Under the pieces are notes generated by a model. That model was not told where the DNA came from, did no database searches, and saw nothing but the letters and a program-made list of their open reading frames with translations. Shown piece by piece: positions 37,340 through 60,689 of a stretch of 64,000 nucleotides of DNA. The stretch comes from a virus. Its lineage: Duplodnaviria > Caudoviricetes. The first letter of the stretch is position 1. Each line of letters opens with the position of its first letter. The stretch spans positions 1-64,000 of IMG/VR virus record IMGVR_UViG_2974730439_000001; one strand, written 5' to 3'. The position numbers were made by a program, and so were the translations under genes.

Positions 37340-37993
37340 ATGTTGTGTTATTTACAAAGTGCAGAATTAAGACCACGAGAAGGAAAATTACCTTTCTTTA
37401 TATGCAAGTGGCAAGGTGTCGTAGGCGATACAAGTGCGGACAAAGTAACGGATGAAGGAAACGGCGTTGTAAGAATTAATGTTAAGGCAGCTTTAGCCCG
37501 TAACATTACTCTGACAAAGTCCATATTTCCCGCTGATGAAGAAGCGTTAAGCGAATGGAAAAAGTTACTCAAGTGCCGTGTTATGTACGTTCCCGAAAAG
37601 AATGAAGATGGAACGTATAAAAAAGACGATAACGGTAATTACATTCTCAATGAGAGAGTAAAAGAGGAGAATAAAAACAAATGTGTAGTAAATTTACTTT
37701 ACAAGCAAGTAGATTTAGCTTCTATCAGTGACGAGGTAAAACGCATTGAGTATACCACTTCTGACGGGCGAATAATGAAACAGAGCTTTATCACTGTTAT
37801 TGGTTTTGCTGATGAAAAGGACGTTTGGGCTGAAGAAATCACGCCTGAAGAAATGGCAGCAAACAATCTTCGCACTAATCTTGCCAACGGTACGTATATC
37901 GATATCACGGATGAAGAAGAAGAAAAAGAAGCCAAACCAACCAAAACGGAAAGTAAAAAATCTACACAAGCCTCTGATGACGATTGGGATTAA
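37340..37993 (+). CDS. First early-arm gene, 217 aa, acidic tail (DDDWD); possible ssDNA-binding protein
   Basis: Likely start ATG 37340; acidic C-terminus; followed by a terminator. Confidence 0.6.
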   Translation: MLCYLQSAELRPREGKLPFFICKWQGVVGDTSADKVTDEGNGVVRINVKAALARNITLTKSIFPADEEALSEWKKLLKCRVMYVPEKNEDGTYKKDDNGNYILNERVKEENKNKCVVNLLYKQVDLASISDEVKRIEYTTSDGRIMKQSFITVIGFADEKDVWAEEITPEEMAANNLRTNLANGTYIDITDEEEEKEAKPTKTESKKSTQASDDDWD

Positions 37994-37995
37994 CG

Positions 37996-38029
37996 GAGAC
38001 GGTGGGGAAACCCACCATCCTCGTTTTTT
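37996..38029 (+). terminator. Intrinsic terminator
   Basis: GGTGGG-GAAA-CCCACC hairpin then U6. Confidence 0.7.
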
Positions 38030-38079
38030 AAGACTAATTGTTTTACCAAAATAGACTAATCACATAATATATAGCTTTT

Positions 38080-38244
38080 ATGGACAGAAGTGTAATAATT
38101 GCATTAGTTATTTTTGTTTTTCTTTGGATTGTAATACTAAAATATTGCATTGAAACAAATGATTGGACTGGCTTTATTTACCTAAACGGTCTCGCTTTGT
38201 TGATAACAATATCATGTATATGGACAGACAAAAATAATAAATAA
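38080..38244 (+). CDS. 54-aa two-helix membrane protein
   Basis: MDRSVIIALVIFVFLWIVIL...GFIYLNGLALLITISCIW. Confidence 0.55.
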   Translation: MDRSVIIALVIFVFLWIVILKYCIETNDWTGFIYLNGLALLITISCIWTDKNNK

Positions 38245-38502
38245 ACTTTCAAAAAAACAAGAGAATAGCATAGCGAAAATAATGCGCTTGTTCTATAAAA
38301 AACTCAATAACTTCCCAAGACATTGAGGGCACCAGTTTCTTATAATAGTGTAGTTGGCAGACGTAAGGGCGTACTCAGCTGCCAGATGAAGCAGTGAATT
38401 CTGTGGACTGATAGAGAACGTGTGACATTCAGGCTATGCGTTGCGCAGTTATAAGTTTTAGGTGTAAAATGCAATTTAATCATTAACTAAATAAACAATC
38501 AT

Positions 38503-38586
38503 ATGGATAGAGACACAGAATTAGGTATGTTATCAGTAATAATCATGATGATAGTATTATATCTATCTATATGGTTATTTAACTAA
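38503..38586 (+). CDS. 27-aa single-pass membrane peptide
   Basis: MDRDTELGMLSVIIMMIVLYLSIWLFN with A-rich start context. Confidence 0.45.
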   Translation: MDRDTELGMLSVIIMMIVLYLSIWLFN

Positions 38587-38957
38587 AAACAAACAGAGGA
38601 GTAGAAAACTGTGAACTACTCCGTCTTTAAGGTGAGAATCCTTAACAATCCTGTGGGGCTTATATCTATCAAAAGAACTTACAGCAGCTTTTATATTAGC
38701 TTAGCTGGACTTTATGATAGTATTAGTGCAGACGTTAAAATCAGGAACAACTATATTAGATGGCAATATTACCTTCTTCCAGTCGCAAATGTCATATAGT
38801 TTAATATAGCCAAGTTTGTTTCGTCCTTAGATTTACAGTATCTACCATTTGTTTATTTAATCATTGTTCGTTCTTAATTATACAGATTGATTAATTAAGA
38901 ATAACAGTAAGCGTACTGTTGTCAGTATATTTATATGTGAATATAGATATACTGATT

Positions 38958-39047
38958 GCACTCATTAAGGTAGCCTTCATGTGGCGAGTGTGTTAAGTAA
39001 TAGGTCTAAAGAATCTTCCAGTTTGTACCTATGAAAACTAATACCTT
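38958..39047 (+). ncRNA. HDV-like self-cleaving ribozyme
   Basis: P1 GCACTC/GAGTGT, P2 AAGGTA/TACCTT, P3 GCC/GGC, L3 TTCATGT, P4 ATAGGT/ACCTAT, J4/2 CTAA. Confidence 0.7.
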
Positions 39048-39165
39048 TAACCGCCAGCTCACGCGGTATATAAGACAGGATTGCCGGACCCGCAGGTGTA
39101 ACGAGATAAATACCTGCATTTTTTATTAACCTTGATAATTATCAAGTTGTAAACTTTAATTTAAT

Positions 39166-39248
39166 GCCCAGATGGCGAAATAGGTAGACGCTAAGGTCTT
39201 AAACACCTTTGACCATTGGTCGTGCGGGTTCGACTCCCGCTCTGGGTA
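39166..39248 (+). tRNA. tRNA-Leu (TAA)
   Basis: GCCCAGA/TCTGGGT acceptor, AAGGT-CTTAAAC-ACCTT arm, long variable arm, GGTTCGACTCC. Confidence 0.93.
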
Positions 39249-39280
39249 CAATTAGTAATTAACATTAAAATCAATTTAAT

Positions 39281-39556
39281 ATGAAAGAAGAAAAACTTAC
39301 AAGATTAAAAATTCTAAGAGCAATGTCATATAGACTCTTACATTTCCTTATAAAGGAAAAAATACTTAGTGTATTCTTAACAGAATGTTTACAGAATCCA
39401 TATCGTGTATTACTTGTGGATAGAATATACTGTGATACTTTACCAAGTAATAAAATATATGAATTTGAGTGTTATTTTACATTTGCTAAATCAATTACGT
39501 TAACTGAAAGTATATGGTGGAGATATGCATTTAAATACAGGGAGGAGTATTTATGA
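39281..39556 (+). CDS. Hypothetical early protein
   Basis: 91-aa ORF, weakly similar to 43136-43417. Confidence 0.65.
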   Translation: MKEEKLTRLKILRAMSYRLLHFLIKEKILSVFLTECLQNPYRVLLVDRIYCDTLPSNKIYEFECYFTFAKSITLTESIWWRYAFKYREEYL

Positions 39557-39864
39557 AAAGTCTAAATAGTATTACTAAATCTATAGTAGGTGCTATAATA
39601 TTTACGCTTATAGTCATATGGATAGCTAATAGACTATCTGTTGCACGTGTTAACACAGCTACAGAGTTTTTAGACAATTATAAGAATTGTATAATAGTGA
39701 GAAAAGATAAGAGTACAAACGACTATATACTTACTATTAAAAATCCTTATACTCAAGATATTAGATATCGAATTACTAATGTAGTTGTTCCTTCTGGATT
39801 ATGGTATAACTATTCTATAGGAGATACCATTGGTAAGAAAAAGCAGATATATTTTAATCAATAA
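39553..39864 (+). CDS. Membrane-anchored hypothetical protein
   Basis: N-terminal TM helix, C-terminal IGDTI motif. Confidence 0.7.
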   Translation: MKSLNSITKSIVGAIIFTLIVIWIANRLSVARVNTATEFLDNYKNCIIVRKDKSTNDYILTIKNPYTQDIRYRITNVVVPSGLWYNYSIGDTIGKKKQIYFNQ

Positions 39865-39868
39865 AAGT

Positions 39869-40237
39869 ATGAAAAGAGAAGAAATTAAATCTTACAAAGA
39901 TGCTTGTAAAGTAATAGGTAGAAAACCTAGAACTTATAAGGATAAGCATTTGAATCTGTATGAACAGCTTAGTACAATTATAGCTACTCTAAATTTCATT
40001 AGTAATGATAATAAACCTTGGACACCTAAGTTCGATTATTATTACATCTATTCTTGGTTGCACAGAAAAGATGGATATAATAAAACTGCGGGTTTGTTCC
40101 ATTTGTCTTCTAACGATGGGTTGGCCTCTTCCTTTGCTGCTGTCGGGACTTCTCTGAAGATAAAAGAAGAAGAGGATGGAAATTACATAATGGAAAACTT
40201 TGAAGAACTACTCCAAGATTGGTTTTGGGGAGATTAA
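39869..40237 (+). CDS. Small early protein carrying a DGR variable repeat (second DGR target)
   Basis: Likely start 39869; AGLFHLSSNDGLASS matches AGLFRLDSDAGLDAS of the tail fibre at DNA level. Confidence 0.75.
   Translation: MKREEIKSYKDACKVIGRKPRTYKDKHLNLYEQLSTIIATLNFISNDNKPWTPKFDYYYIYSWLHRKDGYNKTAGLFHLSSNDGLASSFAAVGTSLKIKEEEDGNYIMENFEELLQDWFWGD
40087..40132 (+). repeat. DGR variable repeat VR2
   Basis: See VR1; GC-richer island with unusual codons in an AT-rich gene. Confidence 0.75.
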
Positions 40238-40262
40238 TTACTAATTTTAAAACATTATCAAA

Positions 40263-40727
40263 ATGGAAAATGAAATGATGGCGAGACCTAAACCGCCAAG
40301 AATAATAGTTTGGGTAGTATTAATAACTCTTGCCTTAATAGGCATGATGGGAGCAATAATTTACGCAGAGCGTGAAAACATTGCTAATTTCTTAAATGGT
40401 GTGAACCAAGAAGAAGTACAAGAAGATCCTCAAGTTATCATTGAGGAACCTGTAACAACAATACAGGATATTCTTGATATGCGTGAGCAAATGAGAGAAG
40501 ACAGAAGAGTTGATAGTGTATTTTTAGCTATGCCAAAGGTAGTATTAATTGATATTTTGATGCAACATGGTACATCGTTGTCTATAAAAGACATGATTTA
40601 CATATATGAATCAAACACATCAACGTACAACACAGTATTATCTGGGGCAAGAGCTCAAAAATATCTTGATGACTCTATACAAACTCATGTTATATCAACG
40701 GTTGTAAATGACTCTATTCAGAATTAA
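40263..40727 (+). CDS. Membrane-anchored hypothetical protein
   Basis: 154 aa with N-terminal TM helix. Confidence 0.7.
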   Translation: MENEMMARPKPPRIIVWVVLITLALIGMMGAIIYAERENIANFLNGVNQEEVQEDPQVIIEEPVTTIQDILDMREQMREDRRVDSVFLAMPKVVLIDILMQHGTSLSIKDMIYIYESNTSTYNTVLSGARAQKYLDDSIQTHVISTVVNDSIQN

Positions 40728-41129
40728 AACCAAACCTTCTTTCTGTTTTAAATGAACATTAGAGTCTAGTATACTCAGTCTGTGAAGATAGAGTATACGT
40801 CCTCAGAAAATGACAAGCATGTGGGGCATAGTAAATACTATAATGGCAGATTGAATTAGTAAGGCATACGTATGCATATGTAGAACAAACCATTTGATTA
40901 AATGTATTTATGATTGTGCGAGACGTTAAAATCATGTACTCCAATAAGATTTAGTTTGACAGCTATTTCTGCTTATGAGTTAAAACTATAGTGAGAGTCA
41001 TAGCGTAAGTAACGATTGTAGTCGTTTATCTTTGTCTTATAACAAATGCTATAAACTAAGAGTTGGCACTAACTTAATTAAATCCTGAGTGTCCAGGCGT
41101 CATTATTAATCAATTTAAACGTTTAAATT

Positions 41130-41393
41130 ATGGGAATATTATCAAAATTAACCAGAGCAATGCGTATTAGAAAAATACGCAGAGAAGCTAGGCAAAAAGC
41201 TTATGAAGCATTATGCCTATCACCATTGAAATACTCTAGAGCAATTGCTGAAATAGATTGTGTTATTGATGGTCACAAATGGAGTAGTGAATTTGATCCT
41301 AAAAAGGAAATAGCTAAAGGCACTACTAAGAGAGTATACTGCAAACATTGTGGAGTATACTATCATACTCATACTTATAAAGAGAATATATGA
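41130..41393 (+). CDS. Small protein with C...H...CxxC zinc-finger-like motif
   Basis: DCVIDGHKW...YCKHCG. Confidence 0.65.
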   Translation: MGILSKLTRAMRIRKIRREARQKAYEALCLSPLKYSRAIAEIDCVIDGHKWSSEFDPKKEIAKGTTKRVYCKHCGVYYHTHTYKENI

Positions 41394-41617
41394 AAAAGTT
41401 AAGTAATGGATACCTAGAGACAACATTTAAAGTATTTTGTCGTAGTGATGATACTATAGTAGACGAAACAGAAGCTTATATTAAAATAGACTCTATAGTA
41501 GGAATATGTAGAAGTATTAAAAGTAATACTACAGATATAATACTTACAAGTGGAGATAGGTATACAACTACAGAGAATTTTGAGGATTTCTGTATAGATT
41601 TTTTTAAAGAAAATTAA
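41390..41617 (+). CDS. Hypothetical protein
   Basis: 75-aa ORF, ATGA-type overlap. Confidence 0.6.
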   Translation: MKKLSNGYLETTFKVFCRSDDTIVDETEAYIKIDSIVGICRSIKSNTTDIILTSGDRYTTTENFEDFCIDFFKEN

Positions 41618-41641
41618 TTTTAATCAATAAAACTTAAACAA

Positions 41642-42040
41642 ATGAAACTTTTAATTATTGGATTTAAAGATGGAGTTGATGATGCGCTCATCGAAAATGG
41701 TGTACTTGCTCTTCAAGGTATAATGGGAATAGATGTTAAAGCTACTATCTACACTGAAGATGAATTTCTACCTACTAATAAAAACAAGAAAAAGCCTGTG
41801 AAAAGCGATTTTATGGTCGCTATAGAAACAGTTAATGAAGTATGTGGAGGAGAATCAGACAGTATAGCTTTCCGTAGCTCTTTCTATACTCTTGTATTAA
41901 AAGGAGTAATACAGAGACCTATTCTTGAAGTACTATCATATGGTCCTAAAACTAGTAGAGATCTTGAATTTCTTTCTAAAAGAAAAGAAATGGAAAATAT
42001 TGTAGAATATGCTCGTGTAGCTTTATCAATGATTTCATAA
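41642..42040 (+). CDS. Hypothetical protein
   Basis: 132-aa ORF. Confidence 0.7.
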   Translation: MKLLIIGFKDGVDDALIENGVLALQGIMGIDVKATIYTEDEFLPTNKNKKKPVKSDFMVAIETVNEVCGGESDSIAFRSSFYTLVLKGVIQRPILEVLSYGPKTSRDLEFLSKRKEMENIVEYARVALSMIS

Positions 42041-42165
42041 TGGGAAAGACATTCAAAGATAGTAATTATGCCATGAAATATGGCAATACTAAGAAAACAA
42101 GATCACGTAGAGCTAAATTACAGCCTTATGATCGTAAAGCTAGAGACTATGAGACTGATAAGTAA
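42040..42165 (+). CDS. 41-aa basic peptide (MGKTFKDS...)
   Basis: TAATG coupling with the upstream gene. Confidence 0.5.
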   Translation: MGKTFKDSNYAMKYGNTKKTRSRRAKLQPYDRKARDYETDK

Positions 42166-42337
42166 TCAAAAACTTAAAGCAACAGTAAATAATCGTTTAA
42201 AGAACGATTGCCCGTTACAATGCAATAAAAAACATTGTGATGTATGTCAATTCAGAAATGACAAATCTGAATCGATTCCAACAGTAACTACTAATACTCC
42301 TTCGCCAGAGGTATACGGTAGAGATATGTATTATTAA
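42149..42337 (+). CDS. Small Cys-containing protein
   Basis: CPLQC...CDVC; likely start 42149. Confidence 0.5.
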   Translation: MRLISNQKLKATVNNRLKNDCPLQCNKKHCDVCQFRNDKSESIPTVTTNTPSPEVYGRDMYY

Positions 42338-42555
42338 CCCTAAACAAGTTAGTATGGTGCAGTCAACCCAAAACTACTATTATCAACCAGATCCCTAATG
42401 GAAGCTTAGTAACAACTAAGCTACTAAGCAAGAGTACAATGGACTATACAACGGTCAACCAGTATCTAATATTGGTCTAAGATGAAGGAAAAGGGTTGCC
42501 TATGAATAAGAGATACGAATAAGTAGGATAGTAGTTTTTTAAAGAAATTAAAGAA

Positions 42556-42810
42556 ATTGACTGTTAGGTCTATTGAATCATCGTAAGACTTCCGTTCGAG
42601 TCGGAAATGCTCCACTAAATTAAAACAAGGAAGTTATTAGGTTTCTTAGCCGTTAGGTTGCAAGTCCTATAAAAAAGAAACCCTTATCAATGGGGCATAC
42701 AGGTTTTGATTGCGATAGTGAAGGTAGAATAGGTCAATAAGCAGATAACTGGCAATACAAGTTATATTATGAACTATAGCCGTATTGCGGCGTAAGTTCA
42801 AACGGCTAAG
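42556..42810 (+). ncRNA. ssrA: Circularly permuted (two-piece) tmRNA: acceptor piece about 42556-42614, intervening segment, coding piece from 42692; tag GNTSYIMNYSRIAA
   Basis: T arm TTCCG-TTCGAGT-CGGAA then ATGCTCC-A precedes GGGGCAT (G3.U70); helix-2 pairings between pieces; ATAACT-GGC resume context; ORF ends GCG GCG TAA. Confidence 0.88.
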
Positions 42811-42828
42811 CTAATGTCGTAGAAAGCT

Positions 42829-42891
42829 GGAGCATATCAGGCTAGATCAGACGTAAGGGCTGTGAAGGGTTCGATTCCCTTCAATGCTACA
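42829..42891 (+). ncRNA. tRNA/tmRNA-like remnant with T arm, downstream of the tmRNA coding piece
   Basis: GGAGCAT...GAAGGG-TTCGATT-CCCTTC-AATGCTACA; no anticodon arm. Confidence 0.45.
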
Positions 42892-42912
42892 AAACTTTTA
42901 ATTATCAAAATT

Positions 42913-43161
42913 ATGAGAACAGAAAAGCAAATAAAAGCTACTAAGAGAAATTTTGCTATTTTGTATCTTACTGGCTTATTAAAGATGCTAGATCGCATAG
43001 ATTCTTGGACAAGAAACTATGCAATTAAAGGTAGCGTAAATACAGTCAGAAATAGTACTAAATATCTTATATTAGTATTAAAAGATACAAATATTGAACA
43101 TTCATTTTATGGTTCACCTCAAAAAGATGTAAAGTATGAGTGTAAAGAAGGCAATCAATGA
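42913..43161 (+). CDS. Hypothetical protein
   Basis: Likely start 42913 (MRTEKQIKAT...). Confidence 0.6.
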   Translation: MRTEKQIKATKRNFAILYLTGLLKMLDRIDSWTRNYAIKGSVNTVRNSTKYLILVLKDTNIEHSFYGSPQKDVKYECKEGNQ

Positions 43162-43417
43162 CTTGATCCCACCTGAATGGGATTATGTTCTTAGAAAGAA
43201 CAAAGTTCTAACAAAGTTCATAGATTATATGTATGAATTTTGCGTACCAATTTACTGGAGAAATAATAAGTATCATAGAAAAGCAATTGAAAGAATTCGA
43301 TTTAAATTTAATCGAGGAATTTTAGATTGTATTGATGCTATAAATACTTCAGAAGGATATCATTTTTGGAAGAAAATTGAATTAGAAATAGAAACATATA
43401 AAGAGCAAATACGATGA
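43136..43417 (+). CDS. Hypothetical protein (T.EG..FW motif)
   Basis: 93-aa ORF. Confidence 0.65.
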   Translation: MSVKKAINDLIPPEWDYVLRKNKVLTKFIDYMYEFCVPIYWRNNKYHRKAIERIRFKFNRGILDCIDAINTSEGYHFWKKIELEIETYKEQIR

Positions 43418-43599
43418 ATAAAATTGAAATCATTCCTTGGGTTAAGTTTAATGATCCAGGAGTAAAACAAGAAATCGAAAAACTTGCAGAAAAGTCTACA
43501 TCTAAAATGGATTTTCTTTCAAGAGTAAAAGATCAGTATAATTTATCATTATCTGATGCTAAAATTGTTGCAGACAAATTCTTTAAAAAGGAGGTATAA
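43414..43599 (+). CDS. Hypothetical protein
   Basis: 61-aa ORF. Confidence 0.6.
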   Translation: MNKIEIIPWVKFNDPGVKQEIEKLAEKSTSKMDFLSRVKDQYNLSLSDAKIVADKFFKKEV

Positions 43600-44058
43600 A
43601 TGTTAGAACTTAAAAGAGCTGGCTTATATATAGCCAATGGAAAAAACACAAGTGTTTTAGTAAGAGTTGCTGGTGAATATCCTTATTTACGAGTAATTAG
43701 TGGCGTTCTATTGAACGATATGGAAAAAGACGGCACAGTTACTGTCTTAAAAGAAGATGATCCTGAATTGCAGGATATAGTATGTAATCCAAAGAACTAT
43801 ATCTTTGATCTTCCATCTGTAAGTAGTTCTATTAAGAATGAAAATGGATTAAAGACTACTGAAAAGAAGTCTATCGAGTTTACAAATGAGCAATTCGATG
43901 AATGGGTTAATAAATATATTAACTTTACTAAAATGTACCCAGAACAGTACAATGTCAAAGCTCAAGTAATGATTATCAGTGCAGGATTTAGCATATCTCA
44001 AGCTGATCTTATCATTCAACAAATTCAAACAAGACTTCGTTTACGTGGTATTATGTAA
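43600..44058 (+). CDS. Hypothetical protein
   Basis: 152-aa ORF. Confidence 0.7.
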   Translation: MLELKRAGLYIANGKNTSVLVRVAGEYPYLRVISGVLLNDMEKDGTVTVLKEDDPELQDIVCNPKNYIFDLPSVSSSIKNENGLKTTEKKSIEFTNEQFDEWVNKYINFTKMYPEQYNVKAQVMIISAGFSISQADLIIQQIQTRLRLRGIM

Positions 44059-44064
44059 AGTATT

Positions 44065-44547
44065 ATGAAAGCATTTGAGTATTTACAAAAAAATATTAAG
44101 AAAGAATATTCTTTCTATCCTGGTACAATTATATCTTTAACTACTAAAGATGCAATTACTCCATTTAGACTTAACGAAAAGGAGTATTGTACTGGAAGAA
44201 CTAAGATAGGTAATCAGTATTATAATTTCCTAAAAGATGAATCTAGTGATGGTGCAATCTTTAGTGGATTACCTGATAATATCTATAAAAGAATAGAATA
44301 TCCTATACTTAATACAATAGCACAAAGAATCCAAGACAAGATTATGGTATTTGCTGTTAGTCATGCAGAGATGCAACAAACTAAAACTGAGTTAGTTCAG
44401 TTAAGAATAGCAAATAGTATGATTATGAATCTCAAATGTCTTAGTTCAGATGATAGAATTCTCTGGGCTAATTGGATAAAAGAACTTTACTGGGAGAGAA
44501 AAAAGATACTACACAGATGGTATCTAGAATATGTTTTACCATTTTAA
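44065..44547 (+). CDS. Hypothetical protein
   Basis: 160-aa ORF ending LPF. Confidence 0.7.
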   Translation: MKAFEYLQKNIKKEYSFYPGTIISLTTKDAITPFRLNEKEYCTGRTKIGNQYYNFLKDESSDGAIFSGLPDNIYKRIEYPILNTIAQRIQDKIMVFAVSHAEMQQTKTELVQLRIANSMIMNLKCLSSDDRILWANWIKELYWERKKILHRWYLEYVLPF

Positions 44548-44606
44548 TTACTGAATAAGGATTAAAGTCATTGGGTTGGCTTTAGTCCACTAAAATCTAG
44601 CGAACT

Positions 44607-45155
44607 ATGAAAGAAGAAGAAAAGCTTCTTGTAGAGCAAGCTAGAGATGGTTCCGAAAGAGCTTTTAGTACACTTTATAATACTTATAAAAAGACTGTTT
44701 GGTATACTGCTTTTAAAGTAGTAAACAACGCAGATGCAGCAGATGATATAACATCCCAAGTATTTACTAAAGTATATTTAAAGCTTAAATCTTATACACA
44801 TCACTTATCATTTGAGATGTGGTTAAAGACTATTACAGTTAATACTGCAATAGATTATATAAGAAGGAACAAAAAAGAGCAATTGAATAACTATATTGAT
44901 GAAGAAGATTCTACAATTCAATTAAATGGATTAGAGCATAGTCCAGAAGATAATCTTATATTTCAGCAAAATATAAATATTGTTATGGATTGTATTCCTC
45001 GTCTTAAGAAGAAATATAGAGATTTAATTTATGCTCGGTTGGATGGAAAATCCTACCAACAAATTTCAGAAGAGCTTGCTATTCCAGAAGCGACTGTAAA
45101 GACGTGTTTGAATAAAGCAAGACAAAGACTGAGAGAGATGTTTAACAAATATTAA
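44607..45155 (+). CDS. ECF-type RNA polymerase sigma factor
   Basis: G...AFSTLY, ADDITSQVFTK, SFEMWLKTITVNTAIDYIR (region 2); SYQQISEELAIPEATVKTCLNKARQRL (region 4). Confidence 0.92.
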   Translation: MKEEEKLLVEQARDGSERAFSTLYNTYKKTVWYTAFKVVNNADAADDITSQVFTKVYLKLKSYTHHLSFEMWLKTITVNTAIDYIRRNKKEQLNNYIDEEDSTIQLNGLEHSPEDNLIFQQNINIVMDCIPRLKKKYRDLIYARLDGKSYQQISEELAIPEATVKTCLNKARQRLREMFNKY

Positions 45156-45171
45156 CCAATACTTACAAATT

Positions 45172-45537
45172 ATGGCAAATTCATTTGGTCTACTGTGTCT
45201 TGCAGTAGTAATTGGATTCATTGCTTCTATAGTAATGAAGGATGCCAAAGCTTTCGGCAAATTGATGGCCATCATGCTGATAAGCTTACTTGTAGGTGCA
45301 GGAGTAAAGGAGTTAGTAGACATTACTAATGATGATATTACTTCTGAGAAAACTGCAGTAGTTTCTACAGAATCTACTCCCATGCACAGTAGTATTTCTC
45401 CTTTTGTATTGGAGGATACTGTTGCTATTCCAGATTGTGCAAGTAAGGAAATAGTAGAGCGTGACAGTGTAGAAATTGAAGCAGAAGGAGTACCTACAAA
45501 ACAGAGAGTGAAAAGTAGTTATATAGATGATTCATGA
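45172..45537 (+). CDS. Two-TM membrane protein after sigma (anti-sigma candidate)
   Basis: Two hydrophobic helices plus acidic tail; role inferred from position only. Confidence 0.55.
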   Translation: MANSFGLLCLAVVIGFIASIVMKDAKAFGKLMAIMLISLLVGAGVKELVDITNDDITSEKTAVVSTESTPMHSSISPFVLEDTVAIPDCASKEIVERDSVEIEAEGVPTKQRVKSSYIDDS

Positions 45538-45619
45538 GAGTATATTACTCTCAATATTATTTATATATATCTACAAGTATTTAATCTAATTTACGCGTAA
45601 GGAGCGCATCATTATCAAA

Positions 45620-47002
45620 ATGGCAAAGAATAATAAGAATGCAATTAAAACTGCAAAGAAACAAACTAAGACTGTAGAGGAAAAAGTAAAGACTCAAGCA
45701 GCAGAAGCTGCAGTTGAAGCGCCAAAAGCAGAAGAAACTAAGGTTGAAGAAACCAAAGTTGAAGAACCTACTCCTGCTCCTGTAGAAGAGAAAAAGGAAG
45801 AAATTGCTAGTCCAAATGGAGAAGTAATTAATCCAGAAGTAGTCGAAGAGGCCAAGGTTGAAAAGCCTAAACCTGCTACTCAGGTAGTAAATACGTCAAA
45901 AGCAACATCTTTAGGTGCTGCACTTTCTTCAGCTGGAGGTTCTACAGACCGTATTGACAAGAATCATGCAATTGACCTTGCAAAGATGGTATATCAGGAG
46001 TATGTAAATAATCCAGATACTCCTAGTAGCATTCGACAGACTGCTAAAAAGCAGTTTGATGTAATGACTGGAGTTGCTTTGCTTCAGTATTTTACTCAGC
46101 TAGAAGAAGACTTCGAGAATCTAGGAGTGCGCATTAAACCACATATGCGTGAACAAGCAGAAAATGTTCTTACAAACTATCTTGGAGTTAAAGTAAAGAC
46201 TACTGCCCAGGATGATGGTCAGTTATTGCTTCAATTTGAAGAAATTCCAACTGAGACTCGTAAGACTGTTGCACAGGACAATAAGGCTAAAGAAAAACCT
46301 ATACCAGAACCAAGTCCTGAACTTCCTGAGAAAGAGAAACTAGAAGCATTACGAACAATTTTCGCTCAAACTAATAAGGGTGGAATTGGAGGTAATCTCT
46401 TGAGTGGTATTGAATGGGCACGTAAAGCATTCTCATTCGCTGCTGAAGAGAAGAAGTCTGTTATCTTTGCAAATATCCTTCACAAGGGTACTGAAGCTAC
46501 TATGATTAACTGCTTACGTGGTATGGTTAATGGTAAGATGGGAGCTGAACATAGTATTCTTGGAGCTCATGCATTATTGAAAGCTTGGTGTCCTACATTA
46601 AGTGAACAAGAAGTTGCAGAACTAACTGCAGTACTTATGTCTGCTGCTTCTAAGAAGAAAGTTGACGATTGGAATGAGAAAGCCAGTCCATCACAAGGAA
46701 AGCCGACTTATGACGGAGAACTTACAGTAGTAAATCGCCAGATTTTAGCAGCAAATGCAGGAAACGTAATTGATGCTATCTTAAAGGGTAACATTGAGGA
46801 CGTTGCTGTAAAGGTTCCAGACAGTCAGCTTGACATGATTGTTCATCCAAATTCTATCCGTAAAACGCTTATAGCAGCATATGGAGATTCTGAAAATATC
46901 CTAAAGGATAAACTAAAAGAACTTGTTCAGTATTATGCTAAACCTATTATGCGTTTGTCTTCATATGTAGACAAGTCAGCATATGCTGAAGCTAAGAAGT
47001 AA
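45620..47002 (+). CDS. Hypothetical protein, 460 aa, low-complexity E/K/A/P N-terminus
   Basis: Long ORF with highly-expressed codon style. Confidence 0.8.
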   Translation: MAKNNKNAIKTAKKQTKTVEEKVKTQAAEAAVEAPKAEETKVEETKVEEPTPAPVEEKKEEIASPNGEVINPEVVEEAKVEKPKPATQVVNTSKATSLGAALSSAGGSTDRIDKNHAIDLAKMVYQEYVNNPDTPSSIRQTAKKQFDVMTGVALLQYFTQLEEDFENLGVRIKPHMREQAENVLTNYLGVKVKTTAQDDGQLLLQFEEIPTETRKTVAQDNKAKEKPIPEPSPELPEKEKLEALRTIFAQTNKGGIGGNLLSGIEWARKAFSFAAEEKKSVIFANILHKGTEATMINCLRGMVNGKMGAEHSILGAHALLKAWCPTLSEQEVAELTAVLMSAASKKKVDDWNEKASPSQGKPTYDGELTVVNRQILAANAGNVIDAILKGNIEDVAVKVPDSQLDMIVHPNSIRKTLIAAYGDSENILKDKLKELVQYYAKPIMRLSSYVDKSAYAEAKK

Positions 47003-47007
47003 TCAAT

Positions 47008-47391
47008 ATGAAGCGTTTTAATATGTTAGTCACACTAGTAATGGTGTGCCTAGGAGGGTTTATAGGATTTGATCCTAATTCTCCGTCTCAAACTGCAAAC
47101 GCTGAAGAAACTCGAATTCGTTGGGTAGACGTACCTAAAATGCCAGTAGACGTACTAGGCTTGAATGAAGAGAAATCTATCAACATTGACTTGCAGGAAA
47201 AGACTGTATTATTTAATGGAGACGTTGATAATACCACTGTGACAATTAAAACGGACGTTGAGACACGTCCAGAGTATATAACTAAGGTAGTAGAAAAGGT
47301 AGTATATCTGCCTGAAGATATTGCCTATAGAAGTAAATTTTTTAACCGTTTAAAACCGATTAATAAAGAACTACCAGTGAAGAATTGGTAA
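47008..47391 (+). CDS. Signal-peptide/membrane-anchored protein
   Basis: MKR plus hydrophobic N-terminus. Confidence 0.7.
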   Translation: MKRFNMLVTLVMVCLGGFIGFDPNSPSQTANAEETRIRWVDVPKMPVDVLGLNEEKSINIDLQEKTVLFNGDVDNTTVTIKTDVETRPEYITKVVEKVVYLPEDIAYRSKFFNRLKPINKELPVKNW

Positions 47392-49587
47392 CTGCCGAAG
47401 AGAAACGCAGACCGCTACTAGAACTATACAAGCGGTATATAAGAGCTATAAGTATAAATATTCATTATTTGAGCCTAACTAAGCCGTGTAATGTGAGTAA
47501 TACAGGATACTGAAATGTATTAAATAAAAGCTAACACTTTTATTTATACTATAGTATGATAACTTGTTGTGTTATAAAATTACTCTATAACTGAAGAAGC
47601 AACAGGAAAATGGGAGAGCGTGCATAACCCATAAGCGAGAACCGTACTGGTGGCTAAAAGACGCAGGTGTGGAAGGAGCAGCTATCGCATCTAAACAAAG
47701 CAAGGGGTATCGTTTACCTCTATACACATTCGTTGACCAATATCACTGGTGAAATCACGAAGGAATGTGAACACGTGCTGTTTATACGTTGTCATCTTAA
47801 CTGAGAATCGACTAGCATTCTAGGGTGTCTCCAAAACCCCCTTGGCCCACTACTTAAGTGTGTACGAGCCTAAAGAATATTGCCTTAGTGTTCTATATTA
47901 TATCTAAAGATCTTCTGTTGTATAGAAGTGTAAAATTCAATTGGGAATCGGGAAAATCGATGGCAAGATTAGTACTTGGATATGGTATATATGAAGGAGG
48001 AGGATAATATAATAATGAGCAGAAATTAATTAAGACATGGCTGAGTGGCTATGATCCGTATAATATCTTTTTGTATGAGAGTTATATGACAGATTAACCA
48101 GATTGGGTGCAAAACCCTTACGCAATACAGTGAACGTTAGAGTTAGCTGTTTGGGAGAAATCCCTATGGAAAGTAAATTGCGTGTCTTACAGCTTAAGAG
48201 ATTTCATAATATAGTTGCAATTACTATAGTGTTTAGAAATAAGCATAATGAGGTTTAGGTTATTATATTATAAAGTGACTTGTTAGTAATGTCACTATAA
48301 AGCTTAGTGTGCTTTGCACCGAGTAATAAACTAACTAGCGCTTGAAGTCCGCGAAAAGACTATTAGTGGTTGAATATATGATCAATATAAGTATATTCAT
48401 GGGAAACAAAGGAAGGTGGAACTGAGCCCACCCATAAAACTCAGACAAAGTAAGTGAGGTATCTTTAACCAAGATTCGCTAGAAATAATTAGGTAAGAGC
48501 TATGCACTCCAGCATAGAGCAGGATCTTACAATGCGTCTTAAGAGGCCGACACGAAGTAGAATGGAAGTAATCTACGTATTGCCTTGGTTAGTTAATGTT
48601 ATATAAGATGTTATGTACTTTAGTAAGTCTAATCAATGAGTGCCTACGCTGAAACGAACAGCTAAAACAAATAAGGAGAGTGTAAACATGTTTAATTTTT
48701 AAAACAATAGGGAAGTTCAATGGTAGTACCTTGACAAAGTATGAGCCACCCCGCTATTGAAGTAACTTGCTACATGAAATTCTGTAAACTAATGTGCGCA
48801 ACACATTAGCTAAGGAGATCGCTGAGACGGCTGGTACGCTTCTCATTAGAGTGTACTAAAACGTTTGTTGAATGGTTGGAAATACCATGAGTAGAAAATA
48901 GTAACCTGAGATTTATCGCAATGTCAGAAGTGAAATGTCCAAAAGTGGGTGCTGCGAAACATCAGCAGCTTTTGTATTAGTAGTTTTAGTAACGTTTCTC
49001 AACAGAAACGACCCTCATTCGCCAAGTCTATTTTTAAGATAAGAATGTTGTAATAGCTTATATGCCCGTAGATAGTATCGTACTATTGATGATGGAGCTC
49101 TCTACATCTTTGCATCAAATCGCGTTGTAGAGTACGGCAAACAAAGGGAAACGGTAGGTGTTACGAGTCCCCTTTAAGTATAATCTCGAAACCCAAAATT
49201 GCCAATATTAACAGATATTAGCAGAAAATATTATATTTTAGAGGAGTAGGAATAAATAAGTGAAGAACGGCTGACTTATCTGTCTAATAAGTAAAGTCCT
49301 ACGGGGAATGCCGAGTAGTGAAATATCACTACGTTCTAGTAATGAGTTTTATTATACTTTGACTTATTTTACAGTATTAACAAATTTTATCAGAATTTTA
49401 ACTAACGTTGTATTACCATATGCATCATTGAGATTGATTAACCTCATTCAAAGCTTTTTAAAGCGTATCCTTTAGGTACAGGATAAGGTTAGAATAAAAG
49501 GTAATACATTAATTTTTAATTTTATTTATTAACTGATTAATTTCTCGTTAAAGAAATCAATCTTAAAATCAAAAAGGAGAAATAAAT
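47392..49587. ncRNA. Candidate large structured non-coding RNA locus (about 2.2 kb)
   Basis: No ORF of 60 aa or more lies within it in the six-frame track; visibly less AT-rich; many short hairpins. Confidence 0.45.
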
Positions 49588-50154
49588 ATGAACGAAATGA
49601 ATGCAGTGATCAATCCTGAATTGATCGGTAAAAACAGAGCTATTCTTGAATCTTGGAACTTAATTGGTAAAAAGATTTTCGTTGTTCGGCGGGAGCCAGC
49701 AGATCTTATGTTCAATGACCGTAAACGGGACGGCGATCCAACTTTGACAATGAAACCAATCATGAAGTACATTATTGAAGGTACTAATATCTTCGGTGTG
49801 CGGTTAGTTCCACTTCCTGATAAGACTACTCTTGTAGTGGAGTTAAACAACAATCCAACTCTGCAGTTTAAGATTGGACCTGCTAAATTCCGTGAAGTTA
49901 CTATGGAAACTATCACAGAAGCAGTAGAAAACAATGAGAAGAATTCTTCTCTTGGACGGGAACCGATTTTGTTTGATGATTTGATCTCTCTTACTGAGCA
50001 GGTTAACAAGTTGAATGCTCTGGAGAAAGCAAAAGCTGAGGCTATTGCAGAAGATATGCTTAACCAGGCTAAGTTGTTAAGCGACCTTAATGACATTCAT
50101 TTGACGGAGTGTGATAAGTATTATACTGAACTTGGCACTCCTATTACGAAATAA
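49588..50154 (+). CDS. Hypothetical protein
   Basis: 188-aa ORF. Confidence 0.75.
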   Translation: MNEMNAVINPELIGKNRAILESWNLIGKKIFVVRREPADLMFNDRKRDGDPTLTMKPIMKYIIEGTNIFGVRLVPLPDKTTLVVELNNNPTLQFKIGPAKFREVTMETITEAVENNEKNSSLGREPILFDDLISLTEQVNKLNALEKAKAEAIAEDMLNQAKLLSDLNDIHLTECDKYYTELGTPITK

Positions 50155-50162
50155 TTTGAGCT

Positions 50163-50696
50163 ATGTCAAAAGTAAGACTAATCTCCAAATCTCGAGAAGA
50201 CTTACTAAAGCTTTTATTAAAAGATAATCGTATTAGTAGCATTGTTCTTTTGAATAATGAGATTCCAGAATCAATTGTTATCAATGACGATGGGTCGGTA
50301 ACATTTGGTAGAACACCAAAACATTGGTGGAATAAAATTTTTCGAGATTACACAACCCTGTCCTTTACAGATTTGTGTTTTAAAATGCTTAATGCATTTT
50401 CACGGTATTTACCAAAAGATAGTAATTTACCACGAATTCTGACAGAAGAAATCATTACTAATGCTATTAATAAGCAACAGTATGATTTTGTTATTGATCG
50501 ATTTGTTATGTATGCTTTTCTAGGTGTAACAGAAGGTGACTACAAATTGAGTATCCTACAGCTGATAGATGAGAACCCGCAGCAACAGCAAAAAAATGAT
50601 TGTGGTCGAAAAAAACGTTTCCGGGGTGAAGGTATTGCATATCTTGATCTTGGAGGAGGACAAATTCCAATTGGAGTACGTCTAGAAGAAGATTAA
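50163..50696 (+). CDS. Hypothetical protein
   Basis: 177-aa ORF. Confidence 0.75.
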   Translation: MSKVRLISKSREDLLKLLLKDNRISSIVLLNNEIPESIVINDDGSVTFGRTPKHWWNKIFRDYTTLSFTDLCFKMLNAFSRYLPKDSNLPRILTEEIITNAINKQQYDFVIDRFVMYAFLGVTEGDYKLSILQLIDENPQQQQKNDCGRKKRFRGEGIAYLDLGGGQIPIGVRLEED

Positions 50697-50903
50697 TTAT
50701 TCATGAATAAGTATTAGCAGATGGACGCTTATTCATACTTTGGATTGAATAGATTTGTTTAATAAAGTAGTACAAAGTATAACTGAGTTAGTAGATTAGA
50801 TGTAAATATCTACTTACTATAGTTATATAGAGAATGAAAACGTTAAACATTTATATATAAAACCGTAGAGCCCAAGACGATGGGTCGGGTATCTTGGTTT
50901 TAT

Positions 50904-50989
50904 GGCCTTGTGGCGAAATTGGTAAACGCGTCGGACTTAAAATCCGATGATCAGAAATGGTCTTGAGGGTTCGATTCCCTCCTTGGCTA
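50904..50989 (+). tRNA. tRNA-Leu (TAA), acceptor stem with two U.U mismatches
   Basis: TCGGA-CTTAAAA-TCCGA arm, GAGGG-TTCGATT-CCCTC; acceptor GGCCTTG/CTTGGCT. Confidence 0.8.
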
Positions 50990-51056
50990 CACAGGTAAGC
51001 GATTTCTAATATACGATATTTAAATCAAGTATTAACTAAAATAATATCAACTATAT

Positions 51057-51578
51057 ATGAAATCAATTACAAAAACTATTAAGCCGAACATGTTAATCGA
51101 TAAGCGTGATAAATTAACTAATGAAATTTCTCGTTATTGGAAAATTATAGCAACAGAAAATGTACTTAAAAAAGGTTTAACACGCAATTATGACCTAAAA
51201 TCTCTATTAATTCATATTAGAGCAACATATGATGAATTAGTAATTGTTAAATTACGTATTCAGTGTGCAAATATGGGTATTAAGTTAAAGGATTTATCTA
51301 GTGATGCAAACATTATTAATATCTATAAACTATCTGCTTTAAATGAGTATATGGTTAAGTTAGATGAAATGATGAAACATCATACAATTAATCCTGTACT
51401 TAAGGCTAAACGAGGGAAAAAAGGTTTAGCAGTAAATGAGGAACTTACGTATAACTATTTACGTGCTAAGAAGAATGAATGTTCGTTACCATTAAATGAA
51501 TTACGAAAGAAAATTGCAGAATTTAATGACAATACTGATTTGAATGAGGAAGAAACTCCTTTATTCTTAGCAGCATAA
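51057..51578 (+). CDS. Helical hypothetical protein
   Basis: 173-aa ORF ending LAA. Confidence 0.75.
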   Translation: MKSITKTIKPNMLIDKRDKLTNEISRYWKIIATENVLKKGLTRNYDLKSLLIHIRATYDELVIVKLRIQCANMGIKLKDLSSDANIINIYKLSALNEYMVKLDEMMKHHTINPVLKAKRGKKGLAVNEELTYNYLRAKKNECSLPLNELRKKIAEFNDNTDLNEEETPLFLAA

Positions 51579-51724
51579 AAAATCATATTTTTTAAAATTT
51601 AAAAAAAAAATAATAAAGTAATCTTAAAGGGATAGATAAGTAACAATCGACGGTAATACGCCGAATGTGAGGTGTGTCGGAGGCATCTATTCCTTATTTT
51701 TTAATCTTTAAAAACAATAACATT

Positions 51725-52399
51725 ATGAATAAGACTGATCAACAGAAAAATAATAAGTATATCAATTACTGGACAGAAAATGGTAAATCTTCTAAAGAAA
51801 TTAATAGAGCGATGAAGATTGCAATTACAACTACTTATAAGGATAGTAAAGGAAATTTACGTACTTGTACAACATACCGTCATCCTAAATTAAGTGATTT
51901 AACGTTTGAATCTTTACCAGCAAAAAGTTTTGCTCTTACAAAGGAGCAAAAAGAGGAAAGATTCAATAATGCTAAATATAGTGATAAACATGATAAGTTA
52001 GTATCTAACCTATATGGAAAGATAAATAATATCTTTAAGAAGCAAGCAGAAAAAGCAGCACATGAGGATAAAATTAACAATATTATGTTTAACAAAAAAG
52101 TACGTACTTTAGTAAGTAAGCAGAGAATTAAAGGTGAATATCCTAATTTGCTTATTATACAGAGAAAGAACAGTAAAGGTTTACCATATGATTTTAGTAT
52201 AAATCCATCTCGTAAAACATTAGAAGAACTCCGTAAAGACGGAGAAGAGCTAAATGATACATTTAGTAAAACTATGCGAGATTATTGTGGTATCGAAATT
52301 TGGGAAAAGTCTCGATATGAACTAAAAGGAACCGATGTTCCAACGAATTATCGTTATTGTATCTTTAAAAATAAAGAAACTATTAAAAGTGCAGCATAA
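51725..52399 (+). CDS. Basic hypothetical protein
   Basis: Likely start ATG 51725. Confidence 0.7.
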   Translation: MNKTDQQKNNKYINYWTENGKSSKEINRAMKIAITTTYKDSKGNLRTCTTYRHPKLSDLTFESLPAKSFALTKEQKEERFNNAKYSDKHDKLVSNLYGKINNIFKKQAEKAAHEDKINNIMFNKKVRTLVSKQRIKGEYPNLLIIQRKNSKGLPYDFSINPSRKTLEELRKDGEELNDTFSKTMRDYCGIEIWEKSRYELKGTDVPTNYRYCIFKNKETIKSAA

Positions 52400-52623
52400 T
52401 GAGAAAAATTGATAAATTAGATGTTATACATATCAAAAAGAAAGCTGATACGTATATTAAAAAGAACACTGAAATTAGAGAAGGACAAGCTCTGTTTTGC
52501 GCTTCTTATGATTTGTTCCCTAAATCAACAGATAAATTATCTGGAACACCATGTGATTGTTTTTATGAAGATAGCAGAATACCTATCTTTTTAGAAGAAT
52601 TACAAAAATTAGACGCTGAATAG
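52399..52623 (+). CDS. Small phage protein (REGQALF...DCFYED), ends at TAG
   Basis: 74-aa ORF, TAATG coupling. Confidence 0.7.
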   Translation: MRKIDKLDVIHIKKKADTYIKKNTEIREGQALFCASYDLFPKSTDKLSGTPCDCFYEDSRIPIFLEELQKLDAE

Positions 52624-52630
52624 CGTCTTC

Positions 52631-52704
52631 GGTCCTATAGCTCAATTGGATAGAGCAACAGACTTCTAATCTGTAGGTTTTGCGTTCGAGTCGCAATAGG
52701 ATCA
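52631..52704 (+). tRNA. tRNA-Arg (TCT)
   Basis: GGTCCTA/TAGGATC acceptor, ACAGA-CTTCTAA-TCTGT arm, TTGCG-TTCGAGT-CGCAA. Confidence 0.93.
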
Positions 52705-52723
52705 CTAACTAAACTTTAATGAT

Positions 52724-54721
52724 ATGCAAATACGTGGAAAAGCGGTATTTGTATTCGATATCGAAGTATTTCAAAACATCTTTCATTGTTCTGTAAAAGA
52801 CACAGAAACAAATACTATTTATAAATTTGAAATATCAGAAAGAAAAAATCAACTAAGAGAATTAGTTAAATTCTTTAAACAGGTAAATAAGTATATTACT
52901 TGGGGAGAATATTATACTACAACTAGACAAATAGAATCTAATATTATATTCTGTGGTTATAATAATCTGCATTATGATAATCCAATAATCAATTATATAA
53001 TTGAATATGAGGATACTTTAATGAATCACAATGTATTTACTATTTGTAGTTCTATATTCAACTTAAGTAAGACTATTACTACTTCTAAGGAAGATAATAT
53101 AGATGCATGGAAGCATTGGAAATATCAAATATGGTTTGATACTTTTGATATTCTTACTATGTTATATTCTAATAAACTTAGAGTAGGTTTAAAGGAAATC
53201 CAAGTAACAATGCAATATCCTAATGTACAGGAATTTGTATGTGATTGGACTAAACCACTTCCTTTAGAAGATTTTGACTCTATGATAGATTATAATATCA
53301 ATGATATTGAATCTACTTCAGAATTATTAAATAGATGTAAGAAAGATGTTGATTTACGTATAGCTATTGAAGATGAATACGGAGTAAGAGTACTTAGTAA
53401 AGATGGTGTAAATATTGGAATGAAGATTTTAACTCAGAAATATCTTGAAAAAACAGGTTTAACCTGGTGGGATATAGAAGGTTTAAGATCTCCAATGGAT
53501 TATATTCCTTTAAAGGATGTGATATTGCCATTTATTAAATATGATAGCCCTATTCTAAATAGAGTACTAGAAGACATGAAAGATCAGATAGTATCTCCAG
53601 GTAGAAAAGGATATGAAAATAACTTTGTATTTGCAGGCTTACGTTATACTATAGGAGTAGGAGGAATTCATTCTAAAAATGATCCTGAGATAATTATTCC
53701 TAAAGAAGATGAAATGCTTATAGACATCGATGTCGCATCTCTATACCCAAGTATGTTAATTGAATATGGGTTCTATCCTAAACATTTAGGACCTGAATTT
53801 CTAGAAGTATATTCTCAAATTAAAAATGAGAGAATAGAAGCAAAACATAATGGAGATAAGGTAAAGAATGAGACATTAAAGTTAGCTCTAAATGGTTTAT
53901 CAGGAAATCTACAAAATGAACATAACTTTTGTTATAGTCCTGAAGCTGTAATGAAAATCAGAATTAATGGACAGTTATTATTACTTATGTTAGCTGAAAA
54001 GCTAACGCAAGTAGGATGCCGAATCATCCAAGCTAATACAGATGGTTTATTTGTATTACTTAAGAAAGATAACTATCAACAGGTTAACACTATTTGTAGA
54101 AATTGGGAACAACTTACTAAACTTACTCTTGAAGAAGAGCGTTTTGAAGCTATGTATCAATATGCTATTAATGATTATATAGCAGTTAAAGAAGGATACC
54201 AAAAAACTAAAAATCCTGATTTAATTAAAACAAAAGGAATGTTTATTACTAAAGTATTATTAGGTAAAGGACTATCTGCAAAGATAATTCCTGAAGCTAT
54301 AATAAAATACTTTGTAGATGGTATACCAGTTGAACAAACTATTAAGGAATGTAAAGATATTAAAAAGTTTTTAATGTCTGAAAAAACTGGTAAACAATGG
54401 CATGTTGAATATATGAATGAGGAACAACAGAGAACTAATCGTTTCTATGCATCTACCAATGGTGGATACTTATGGAAATGGAAAGATACTGGTCACAAAG
54501 AAGGTGAAATTATAACATACACTGAGCCATATGTAGGAGAACATAAATATAAGGCTTCTGCAAGACAGTATCAGAATATGCTAACAGCATCTGGCGTTAC
54601 TCTTTTAAATAAATTTGATGATAAACCAATAGAAGAGCGTAAAATTAATTATAGATATTATCTTAGAGAAGCTCTTAAGATAATTGAAGAATTACAACCA
54701 AGACAATTAGAACTGTTTTAA
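52724..54721 (+). CDS. polB: Family B DNA polymerase
   Basis: Exo I FDIE, Exo II GYNNLHYD, Exo III YNINDI; DVASLYPS, KLALNGLSG, ANTDG. Confidence 0.93.
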   Translation: MQIRGKAVFVFDIEVFQNIFHCSVKDTETNTIYKFEISERKNQLRELVKFFKQVNKYITWGEYYTTTRQIESNIIFCGYNNLHYDNPIINYIIEYEDTLMNHNVFTICSSIFNLSKTITTSKEDNIDAWKHWKYQIWFDTFDILTMLYSNKLRVGLKEIQVTMQYPNVQEFVCDWTKPLPLEDFDSMIDYNINDIESTSELLNRCKKDVDLRIAIEDEYGVRVLSKDGVNIGMKILTQKYLEKTGLTWWDIEGLRSPMDYIPLKDVILPFIKYDSPILNRVLEDMKDQIVSPGRKGYENNFVFAGLRYTIGVGGIHSKNDPEIIIPKEDEMLIDIDVASLYPSMLIEYGFYPKHLGPEFLEVYSQIKNERIEAKHNGDKVKNETLKLALNGLSGNLQNEHNFCYSPEAVMKIRINGQLLLLMLAEKLTQVGCRIIQANTDGLFVLLKKDNYQQVNTICRNWEQLTKLTLEEERFEAMYQYAINDYIAVKEGYQKTKNPDLIKTKGMFITKVLLGKGLSAKIIPEAIIKYFVDGIPVEQTIKECKDIKKFLMSEKTGKQWHVEYMNEEQQRTNRFYASTNGGYLWKWKDTGHKEGEIITYTEPYVGEHKYKASARQYQNMLTASGVTLLNKFDDKPIEERKINYRYYLREALKIIEELQPRQLELF

Positions 54722-54771
54722 CAGAATCTAACATATCGTATCAAATTCTTATAAAATTGTCATAAACTTTA

Positions 54772-56847: not shown

Positions 56848-56930
56848 TAACTTTTACTTTACATAATACAAATTTTAACATAATTTATCATAGACTATCA
56901 TATCGAGTAAAGTAGTATAACCTATTTAAT

Positions 56931-57671: not shown

Positions 57672-57683
57672 AAAGATTAAGAT

Positions 57684-58295: not shown

Positions 58296-58411
58296 TAAAT
58301 AAGGTTTAAATTAAATGCCTACGCTAGGCTAATATAGCGATACGAGAGTGTGAGTAGAGTCTAACGAAAGCACTCTCGTTTATTTTATGTCTAATTAAAA
58401 ATCAATTTAAA

Positions 58412-59560: not shown

Positions 59561-59562
59561 TT

Positions 59563-60357: not shown

Positions 60358-60689
60358 AAACGTTAAGCCATAAAGAGCTATTATACTATTCCTAAAGTAT
60401 AATGATGAGATGTAATGAATGATAGGTGTAAGTCCTATGATACATATTTATCTTGACAGTTTAGGGAAAATTATAGTCTTTAATATTTTTTAAAGAATTT
60501 TATTGTTCTCTGCTTAACTATATGAGAATTCGAGCCTGAGTTGATGGTCAAGTTGCTCTTGAATATAGAACCAAGGGTTTTCTTTATTTTTAGTTAATCT
60601 ATGCAAACATAGAACTGTAAAAAATAATTTATTATATTAACAAACAATGACAAATTTTATCCTATAGTGTGAGAGCCTATAGGATATAC

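Follow-up and report, generated by a model that had tools for sequence, protein, structure and literature searches.

One template, two distant targets: a probable diversity-generating retroelement acting on a tail protein and a small phrog_11581 protein in a crAss-like phage

Introduction

Why should a short stretch of a small gene in the replication block of a phage closely resemble the end of a tail protein gene that lies about 40 kb away on the other strand? An earlier note on this DNA proposed that a diversity-generating retroelement (DGR) rewrites both genes and that its template and enzyme lie outside the stretch that was analysed. This whole stretch of 64,000 nt, here called the window, comprises bases 1-64000 of a source record of 99,848 nt. 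The reading that best explains the full set of observations is a DGR with one template and two targets, to which a probability of roughly 0.88 is given. The role of the second target is a separate question, and it is answered below in more tentative terms.

Genome and layout

The IMG/VR virus record carries a terminal repeat of 55 nt and is, therefore, taken as a circular assembly of 99,793 bp. The phage is assigned to Crassvirales, family Suoliviridae (crAss-like), near Blohavirus cr53_1. TAG is a sense codon in the late genes of this genome, and in-frame TAG is abundant in the minus-strand virion, RNA-polymerase and lysis genes. The gene holding the second variable repeat (VR2) belongs to an ORF cluster near the start of the plus-strand block, and the same layout of four small ORFs around it is also found in cr53_1. 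The features on this strand are as follows.

Window 37340..64000, plus strand: replication/early block, extending from 37.3 to 65.5 kb; almost TAG-free; sigma factor, DNA polymerase, helicase and primase
Window 39281..40727, plus strand: four tightly packed small ORFs downstream of a tRNA-Leu gene (39166-39249); the VR2 gene comes third
Window 39869..40237, plus strand: gene of the 122-aa second target; phrog_11581 (E 1.6e-7); no TAG codon; no Pfam domain
Window 40085..40150, plus strand: VR2, the non-adjacent variable repeat; 66 nt, 22 codons

A gene for ThyX (flavin-dependent thymidylate synthase; window 36213-37073, minus strand) sits at the divergent switch between both gene blocks. ARAGORN called a permuted tmRNA-like gene at 42525-42886, together with two tRNA-Leu(UAA) and one tRNA-Arg(UCU) at 39166-39249, 50904-50990 and 52631-52705; the same scan found no CTA (CUA) suppressor tRNA despite the recoded TAG. 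A scan for sigma-70 promoters was uninformative.

Template, reverse transcriptase and variable repeats

The template repeat (TR) and the reverse transcriptase (RT) had been predicted just left of base 1. A search of the rest of the genome found both of them there, 162-1416 nt to the left on the circular genome and on the minus strand. The sequence that had been predicted for the TR was correct apart from three additional adenines (GCA, GAG and TTA), where it failed. Read along the minus strand of the circle, the elements follow one another as tail-protein gene with VR1 at its end, TR, spacer of ~136 nt and RT.

Window 1..2403, with the stop at genome 99664-99662, minus strand: tail protein gene (VR1 target); phrog_5302 'tail protein', E 8e-84
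Window 1..77 and genome 99793-99775, minus strand: VR1, 96 nt, of which 77 lie in the window and the final 19 across the circular junction
Genome 99632-99537, minus strand: TR, 96 nt, the third copy of the repeat
Genome 99400-98378, minus strand: RT, 340 aa with TAG read as Gln; 9 in-frame TAG; a single ORF

With TAG read as sense, the ORF map gives the tail protein gene 844 codons, 4 of them in-frame TAG, and 801 of the codons are inside the window. VR1 ends this protein. Its orthologue in the RefSeq genome of cr53_1, KNV47_gp71, was annotated by the depositors as 'tail protein, similar to sulfatase / major tropism determinant'. The domains of such targets are named CLec by Benler et al. 2021 (PMC8008677) and in depositor notes; neither Pfam nor a PDB profile search returned anything for the VR1 domain, and a structure model of the C-terminal 230 aa with VR1 (pLDDT 36, from 8 sequences) is unusable.

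The RT matches PF00078 (about E 1e-20 to 2e-19) and phrog_1423 (E about 1.7e-123), and its RVT_1 match at genome 99184-98609 (minus strand) itself contains in-frame TAG codons. Motifs of the DGR clade are present, namely the DGR signature IGNYLSQ and the catalytic YADD. Holin and lysis-regulator genes, assigned by orthology with cr53_1, lie directly downstream of the RT (genome 97754-98263, minus strand, outside the window); the DGR cassette thus has the tail genes on one side and the lysis genes on the other. When the complete genome was scanned with adenines masked, no third VR appeared. For the accessory gene Avd (PF05635), there was no match in the genome at E <= 1; Avd is not a universal DGR feature, since most zeta crAss-like DGRs are also without it (PMC12386605).

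The similarity that had raised the question, 39 identical positions out of 46 between window 40087-40132 (plus strand) and 46-1 (minus strand), was confirmed, and its seven differences are exactly the codon pairs that had been listed (cgt/cat, gat/tct, gac/aac, gct/gat, gac/gcc and gct/tct). Followed across the circular junction, the match is 64 nt long (blastn E 3e-10). The similarity of VR1 and VR2 is not due to chance. Compared with the TR, VR2 is changed at 17 of 23 adenines and matches at all 43 non-adenine positions, while VR1 is changed at 26 of 35 adenines and at none of the 61 other bases. The probability that 17 random mismatches over 66 positions would all fall at adenines is 4e-11. 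Over the common 66 nt, VR1 and VR2 differ from each other at 10 sites, and all of these are TR adenines. Thus, the proposal that the mismatches correspond to template adenines was borne out for both repeats, with zero exceptions.

Read in the tail-protein frame, the TR holds 10 AAY codons, and VR2 is read in the same frame as VR1, where it encodes residues 73-94 of 122. Its hypervariable codons comprise seven that are derived from AAY and one from GAC, which together allow ~7e8 variants. VR2 is shorter than VR1 at its 5' end; its 66 nt, against 96 nt, are attributed to the shorter 5' homology.

At the 3' end, some differences between template and targets are nearly fixed: the VRs read GTCGGGACT, and the TR reads GTCAGGACA.

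Window 40141..40150, plus strand: candidate IMH-like 3' boundary, TGTCGGGACT in the VRs versus TGTCAGGACA in the TR

The G at 40145, the site of the first TR adenine there, is invariant in 50/50 relatives, and the final base of VR2 (40150) is still variable among them (35 T, 11 A, 4 G). Downstream of this boundary, VR1 and VR2 have nothing in common, and DNA hairpins downstream of either repeat were not above shuffled controls. By analogy with the BPP-1 DGR, the nearly fixed differences may represent an IMH/IMH*-like pair with a role in homing.

The second target and its family

The two targets are unrelated proteins, as had been claimed, and have only ~34 VR-encoded residues in common. The fold prediction suggested for 39869-40237 was carried out with AF2 and gave a model of pLDDT 79 with two helices at the N-terminus, a poorly defined loop, the VR-bearing beta-hairpin and two helices at the C-terminus. 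The hairpin spans residues 76-93 at pLDDT 50-72. Going by this model, VR2 would encode a surface beta-hairpin of a small phrog_11581 protein. Searches with the model by Foldseek (PDB) and a VIA wide fold search gave no match above Z 4.7, and the BFVD fold search returned uncharacterised phage proteins only. In its motifs, the family resembles a CLec fold (WGG...GFRLC) more strongly in the longer homologues than in the 122-aa protein. Similarly, Pfam, a PDB profile search and the ESM Atlas, used with the protein and 15 relatives, gave no annotated relative. The relatives form 597 clusters at 90% identity and only 44 at 50%, as is expected from a hypervariable patch on a conserved scaffold.

Going by the sequences compared, the phrog_11581 family, which is without functional annotation, is a recurrent DGR target. 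The homologues in LoVEphage and in phage Versailles (Bacteroides) match it at E 4e-47 to 1e-78. When the crAss-type profile was aligned to the LoVEphage distal target with hhalign, the two matched end to end over residues 3-120, with 99.3% probability and E 4.5e-20. In both of these phages, the family member lies far from the RT and differs from the TR of the same phage at adenines alone (17/17 mismatches in LoVEphage, 14/14 in Versailles). A second crAss-like lineage (L095/L140) has the same layout, with a target 44% and an RT 74% identical, paired hypervariable codon positions and 11 of 11 TR/VR mismatches at adenines. Phage contig L141 (54.8 kb) encodes two family members in tandem, both with VRs, and a TR and a DGR RT follow immediately downstream. 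The two VRs differ from the TR at adenines except for one G-to-C change, common to both, at the 3' boundary. Four more loci (L144, L152, L159 and L170) have the same ORF layout as L141, as judged by layout comparison only.

Tandem two-domain fusions of the family, of 247-310 aa, were observed in P0153, P0163 and P0166-P0169, and L141:1028-1875 holds two adjacent target genes. No relatives of P0156 were found in viral contigs. In the 109-aa database protein P0132, compared with L139:533-1222, the N-terminal two-thirds of the small-target family are joined to the exact C-terminus of the tail protein (…VGTRLVYIP), either through recombination between VR1 and VR2 or through chimeric assembly at the common repeat.

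Role of the second target

What, then, may the small protein do? Its gene lies in the TAG-free plus-strand block with the genes for DNA polymerase, helicase, primase and sigma factor, and its position and codon use suggest that it is expressed early. The earlier note had seen no obvious signal peptide; the N-terminus is indeed hydrophilic, with no hydrophobic signal-like segment when read from the sequence. The protein is probably cytoplasmic. It may bind a variable factor of the host or of a competitor in phage-host conflict, an idea that parallels the hypothesis published for Quimbyvirus (PMC8008677). We hold this intracellular role tentatively, at somewhat below even odds, and favour it over a role in the virion or outside the cell.

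The competing proposal, which leaves the DGR itself unchanged, is that the small protein is an adhesin associated with the virion or released at lysis, a minimal lectin-like extracellular binder alongside the tail protein. Every known phage DGR target with an assigned role binds a receptor (PMC8144416), the depositors annotated the Versailles homologue as 'tail protein', and the VR segment is one that the family has in common with tail proteins, as phrog_5302 matches the VR of the LoVEphage and Versailles homologues. The surroundings of the gene speak otherwise: in four unrelated phage groups, it is found among replication, recombination or DNA-modification genes and not among structural ones. 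The Versailles member lies between NinB and the replisome organiser, the LoVEphage member among methyltransferases, and those of L142 and L147 adjoin RecT or an SSB. An adhesin would also have to be reconciled with the lack of a signal peptide and of any TAG codon in the gene, though late genes are full of TAG, and the uncorrelated alleles of VR1 and VR2 (see below) weigh weakly against a common ligand. An adhesin is, on balance, somewhat less likely than the intracellular role.

A wider proposal is that phrog_11581 represents a conserved class of DGR-diversified intracellular binders. It would be an antibody-like repertoire with which phages neutralise variable host defence or competitor factors early in infection, and which Bacteroidota phages pair with tail-fibre diversification from the same template. 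We regard this as speculative and, as a whole, doubtful. If it were true, a single family of intracellular binders would span crAss-like, Quimbyvirus-like and Versailles-like phages as well as 55-kb phages, where it serves as primary target.

Rewriting among relatives

Hypervariability of VR2 at the sites of TR adenines had been predicted for metagenomic reads; it was found across 50 related IMG/VR genomes from which the gene was aligned, a comparison between genomes and not of reads within a sample. The mean entropy was 1.27 bits at TR-adenine sites, against 0.10 bits at the remaining VR sites and 0.14 bits in the gene outside VR2, and in the seven AAY codons it reached 1.4-1.96 bits at positions 1-2. 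As many as 49 distinct VR2 alleles occur in the 50 genomes. Genomes that are identical in the rest of the gene have 9-16 base differences in VR2, and among 19 genome pairs with 0-2 differences in 300 non-VR bases, 18 differ at 8-16 of the 66 VR bases. A T/G polymorphism of the TR is mirrored in VR2 in 9/10 complete relatives that retain the TR. VR1 and VR2 are as alike within one genome as between genomes (permutation p = 0.67). With no such correlation inside a genome, VR2 is not copied from VR1; both repeats are, therefore, written independently. The RefSeq genome of cr53_1 has the same architecture, and its gp19 ('hypothetical protein') matches its own TR at all non-adenine sites.

It could be argued that VR2 is a fossil, which was written by the DGR or gene-converted from VR1 in an ancestor, and that the variation seen today consists of inherited alleles shuffled by recombination. 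VR2, along with VR1, is intact in 6 of 15 complete relatives in which TR, spacer and RT are deleted. VR2 of G007 and G009 has 3-4 non-adenine mismatches to its own TR, and in G009 and G013 changes at the 3' end of the TR are seen in VR1 and not in VR2. A fossil would, however, be hard to square with an intact match in the present genome (0/43 non-adenine mismatches), with adenine sites that are near saturation in an otherwise quiet gene and with the many VR differences between genomes identical outside it. The tracking of the TR polymorphism and the independence from VR1 argue in the same direction. A fossil VR2 is, thus, improbable. As for a protein motif in common, or chance, with ordinary substitution, distant family members do retain a G-x-G ... 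VGSRL-x-F pattern, and this account is nevertheless ruled out, with practically no probability left to it, by differences limited to TR adenines (P = 4e-11), identical synonymous third positions, the presence of both TR and RT and the variability of VR2 in relatives.

Rewriting of two targets by the DGR is, as far as genome comparison can tell, real and ongoing among close relatives, and the relatives suggest that the DGR of the present genome is active too. The relatives with deleted TR and RT provide natural DGR-minus controls. Two distinct deletions, equivalent to genome 99.6-98.4 kb, were observed, type 1 in L059, L067, L074 and L075 and type 2 in L068 and L076. Each takes the spacer together with the greater part of the TR, and of the RT it leaves only the last ~20 codons. 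L066 (G007) has three non-adenine TR changes that are absent from its VR2, and its VR1 has a one-codon insertion; its cassette may have been gained by recombination, or homing may have ceased. In a 98%-identical relative, L055 (G004; 1249-2320, minus strand), the RT frame is broken near codon 290 into ORFs of 293 and 80 aa, possibly a frameshifted or decaying RT.

Proposed course of rewriting

Mechanistically, this is an ordinary DGR that reaches its second site in trans. By analogy with BPP-1, RNA of the TR would be reverse-transcribed with adenine-specific errors, and the cDNA would replace VR1; VR2 at 40085-40150, which lies ~40 kb away on the opposite strand, would be replaced independently of it. 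The RT, with its 9 TAG codons, would be translatable only after TAG becomes sense; rewriting would, therefore, take place late in infection, in replicating genomes. The VR2 gene has no TAG, and a new VR2 allele would accordingly be used in the next infection, when it would be expressed from the TAG-free replication block.

Comparison with known systems

The BPP-1 DGR (Mtd, TR, Brt, Avd) is alike in its adenine-specific transfer from TR to VR, in its AAY codon design, in a VR at the 3' end of a tail protein, in a spacer between TR and RT and, possibly, in nearly fixed 3'-end base differences between TR and VRs of the IMH/IMH* kind. In contrast, neither Avd nor a hairpin downstream of the VRs was found here, and a second, distal and non-structural target is present. 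Wu et al. 2018 (PMC5758913) reported phage DGRs in which an adjacent target is joined by a non-adjacent one within 50 kb. Their architecture matches that of the present DGR, the 5' boundary differs between targets of one TR, and action in trans is expected; however, their non-adjacent targets were not characterised as a family, and crAss-like phages were not included. In the tentaclin DGRs (Baykov et al. 2023, PMC10743442), one TR likewise serves two functionally different proteins, each on a beta-hairpin, but these are predicted extracellular binders of the lectin-plus-Ig type and belong to another family than the 122-aa target.

DGRs have been reported in alpha (PMC7290462), epsilon (PMC11054128) and zeta (PMC12386605) crAss-like phages. 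As in the present phage, the RT lies downstream of the tail-fibre target and amber codons in the RT hamper its detection; the targets in those reports are, however, tail fibres only. No mention of a distal non-structural DGR target in Suoliviridae was found in the crAss-like DGR papers that were read, and the main text of Yutin 2021 (PMC7886860) does not mention DGRs. Roux et al. 2021 (PMC8144416) noted that their own metagenome approach would miss remote targets, and a target of the VR2 type would escape any survey limited to RT-adjacent ones.

The closest precedent is the DGR of Quimbyvirus ('Quimbyviridae'), for which Benler et al. 2021 (Microbiome 9:78, PMC8008677) described dual targeting of a tail gene and a non-structural gene. 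The concept of a non-structural second target is, thus, already published. That second target is encoded on the opposite strand, was suggested to be non-structural, and a role in phage-host conflict was proposed for it. Both systems have one RT and one TR with two targets, one of them beside tail genes and one at a distance, encoded on the opposite strand amid non-structural genes. The phage described here differs in being a lytic-type, TAG-recoded, crAss-like member of Suoliviridae, and its RT is a single ORF.

Two aspects appear to be new. One is a dual-target DGR with a non-structural second target in Suoliviridae crAss-like phages, whereby an abundant lineage hypermutates a non-structural protein as well. 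The other is that several unrelated Bacteroidota phages have second targets belonging to one and the same protein family, and that in other phages this family supplies the primary target. Homologues of the 122-aa protein serve as distal targets in LoVEphage and Versailles and as the primary target in other phages, so that what had been published as an isolated oddity becomes a family of proteins open to study. Named cultured host strains exist for the LoVEphage-type BI-TP1 and PV4-TP1 and for Versailles, which is an inducible prophage of B. caecimuris (OMM12 strain), and with such phages the benefit of hypermutating a cytoplasmic-looking protein becomes experimentally approachable.

LoVEphage has several of the Quimbyvirus traits: it is a 71-kb Bacteroides phage whose RT is divided among three frames, and methyltransferase genes abound in the neighbourhood. 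These traits suggest that it belongs with Quimbyvirus; no paper linking the two was found among those searched. Its distal target is homologous to the 122-aa protein (hhalign 99.3%). At 194 aa, it is longer than the protein described here, which is without the 'WGG' insert and has small uncharacterised ORFs as neighbours instead of methyltransferases. The LoVEphage RT (L193-L195; MW660583.1, 47930-48984) was matched in three separate pieces and frames.
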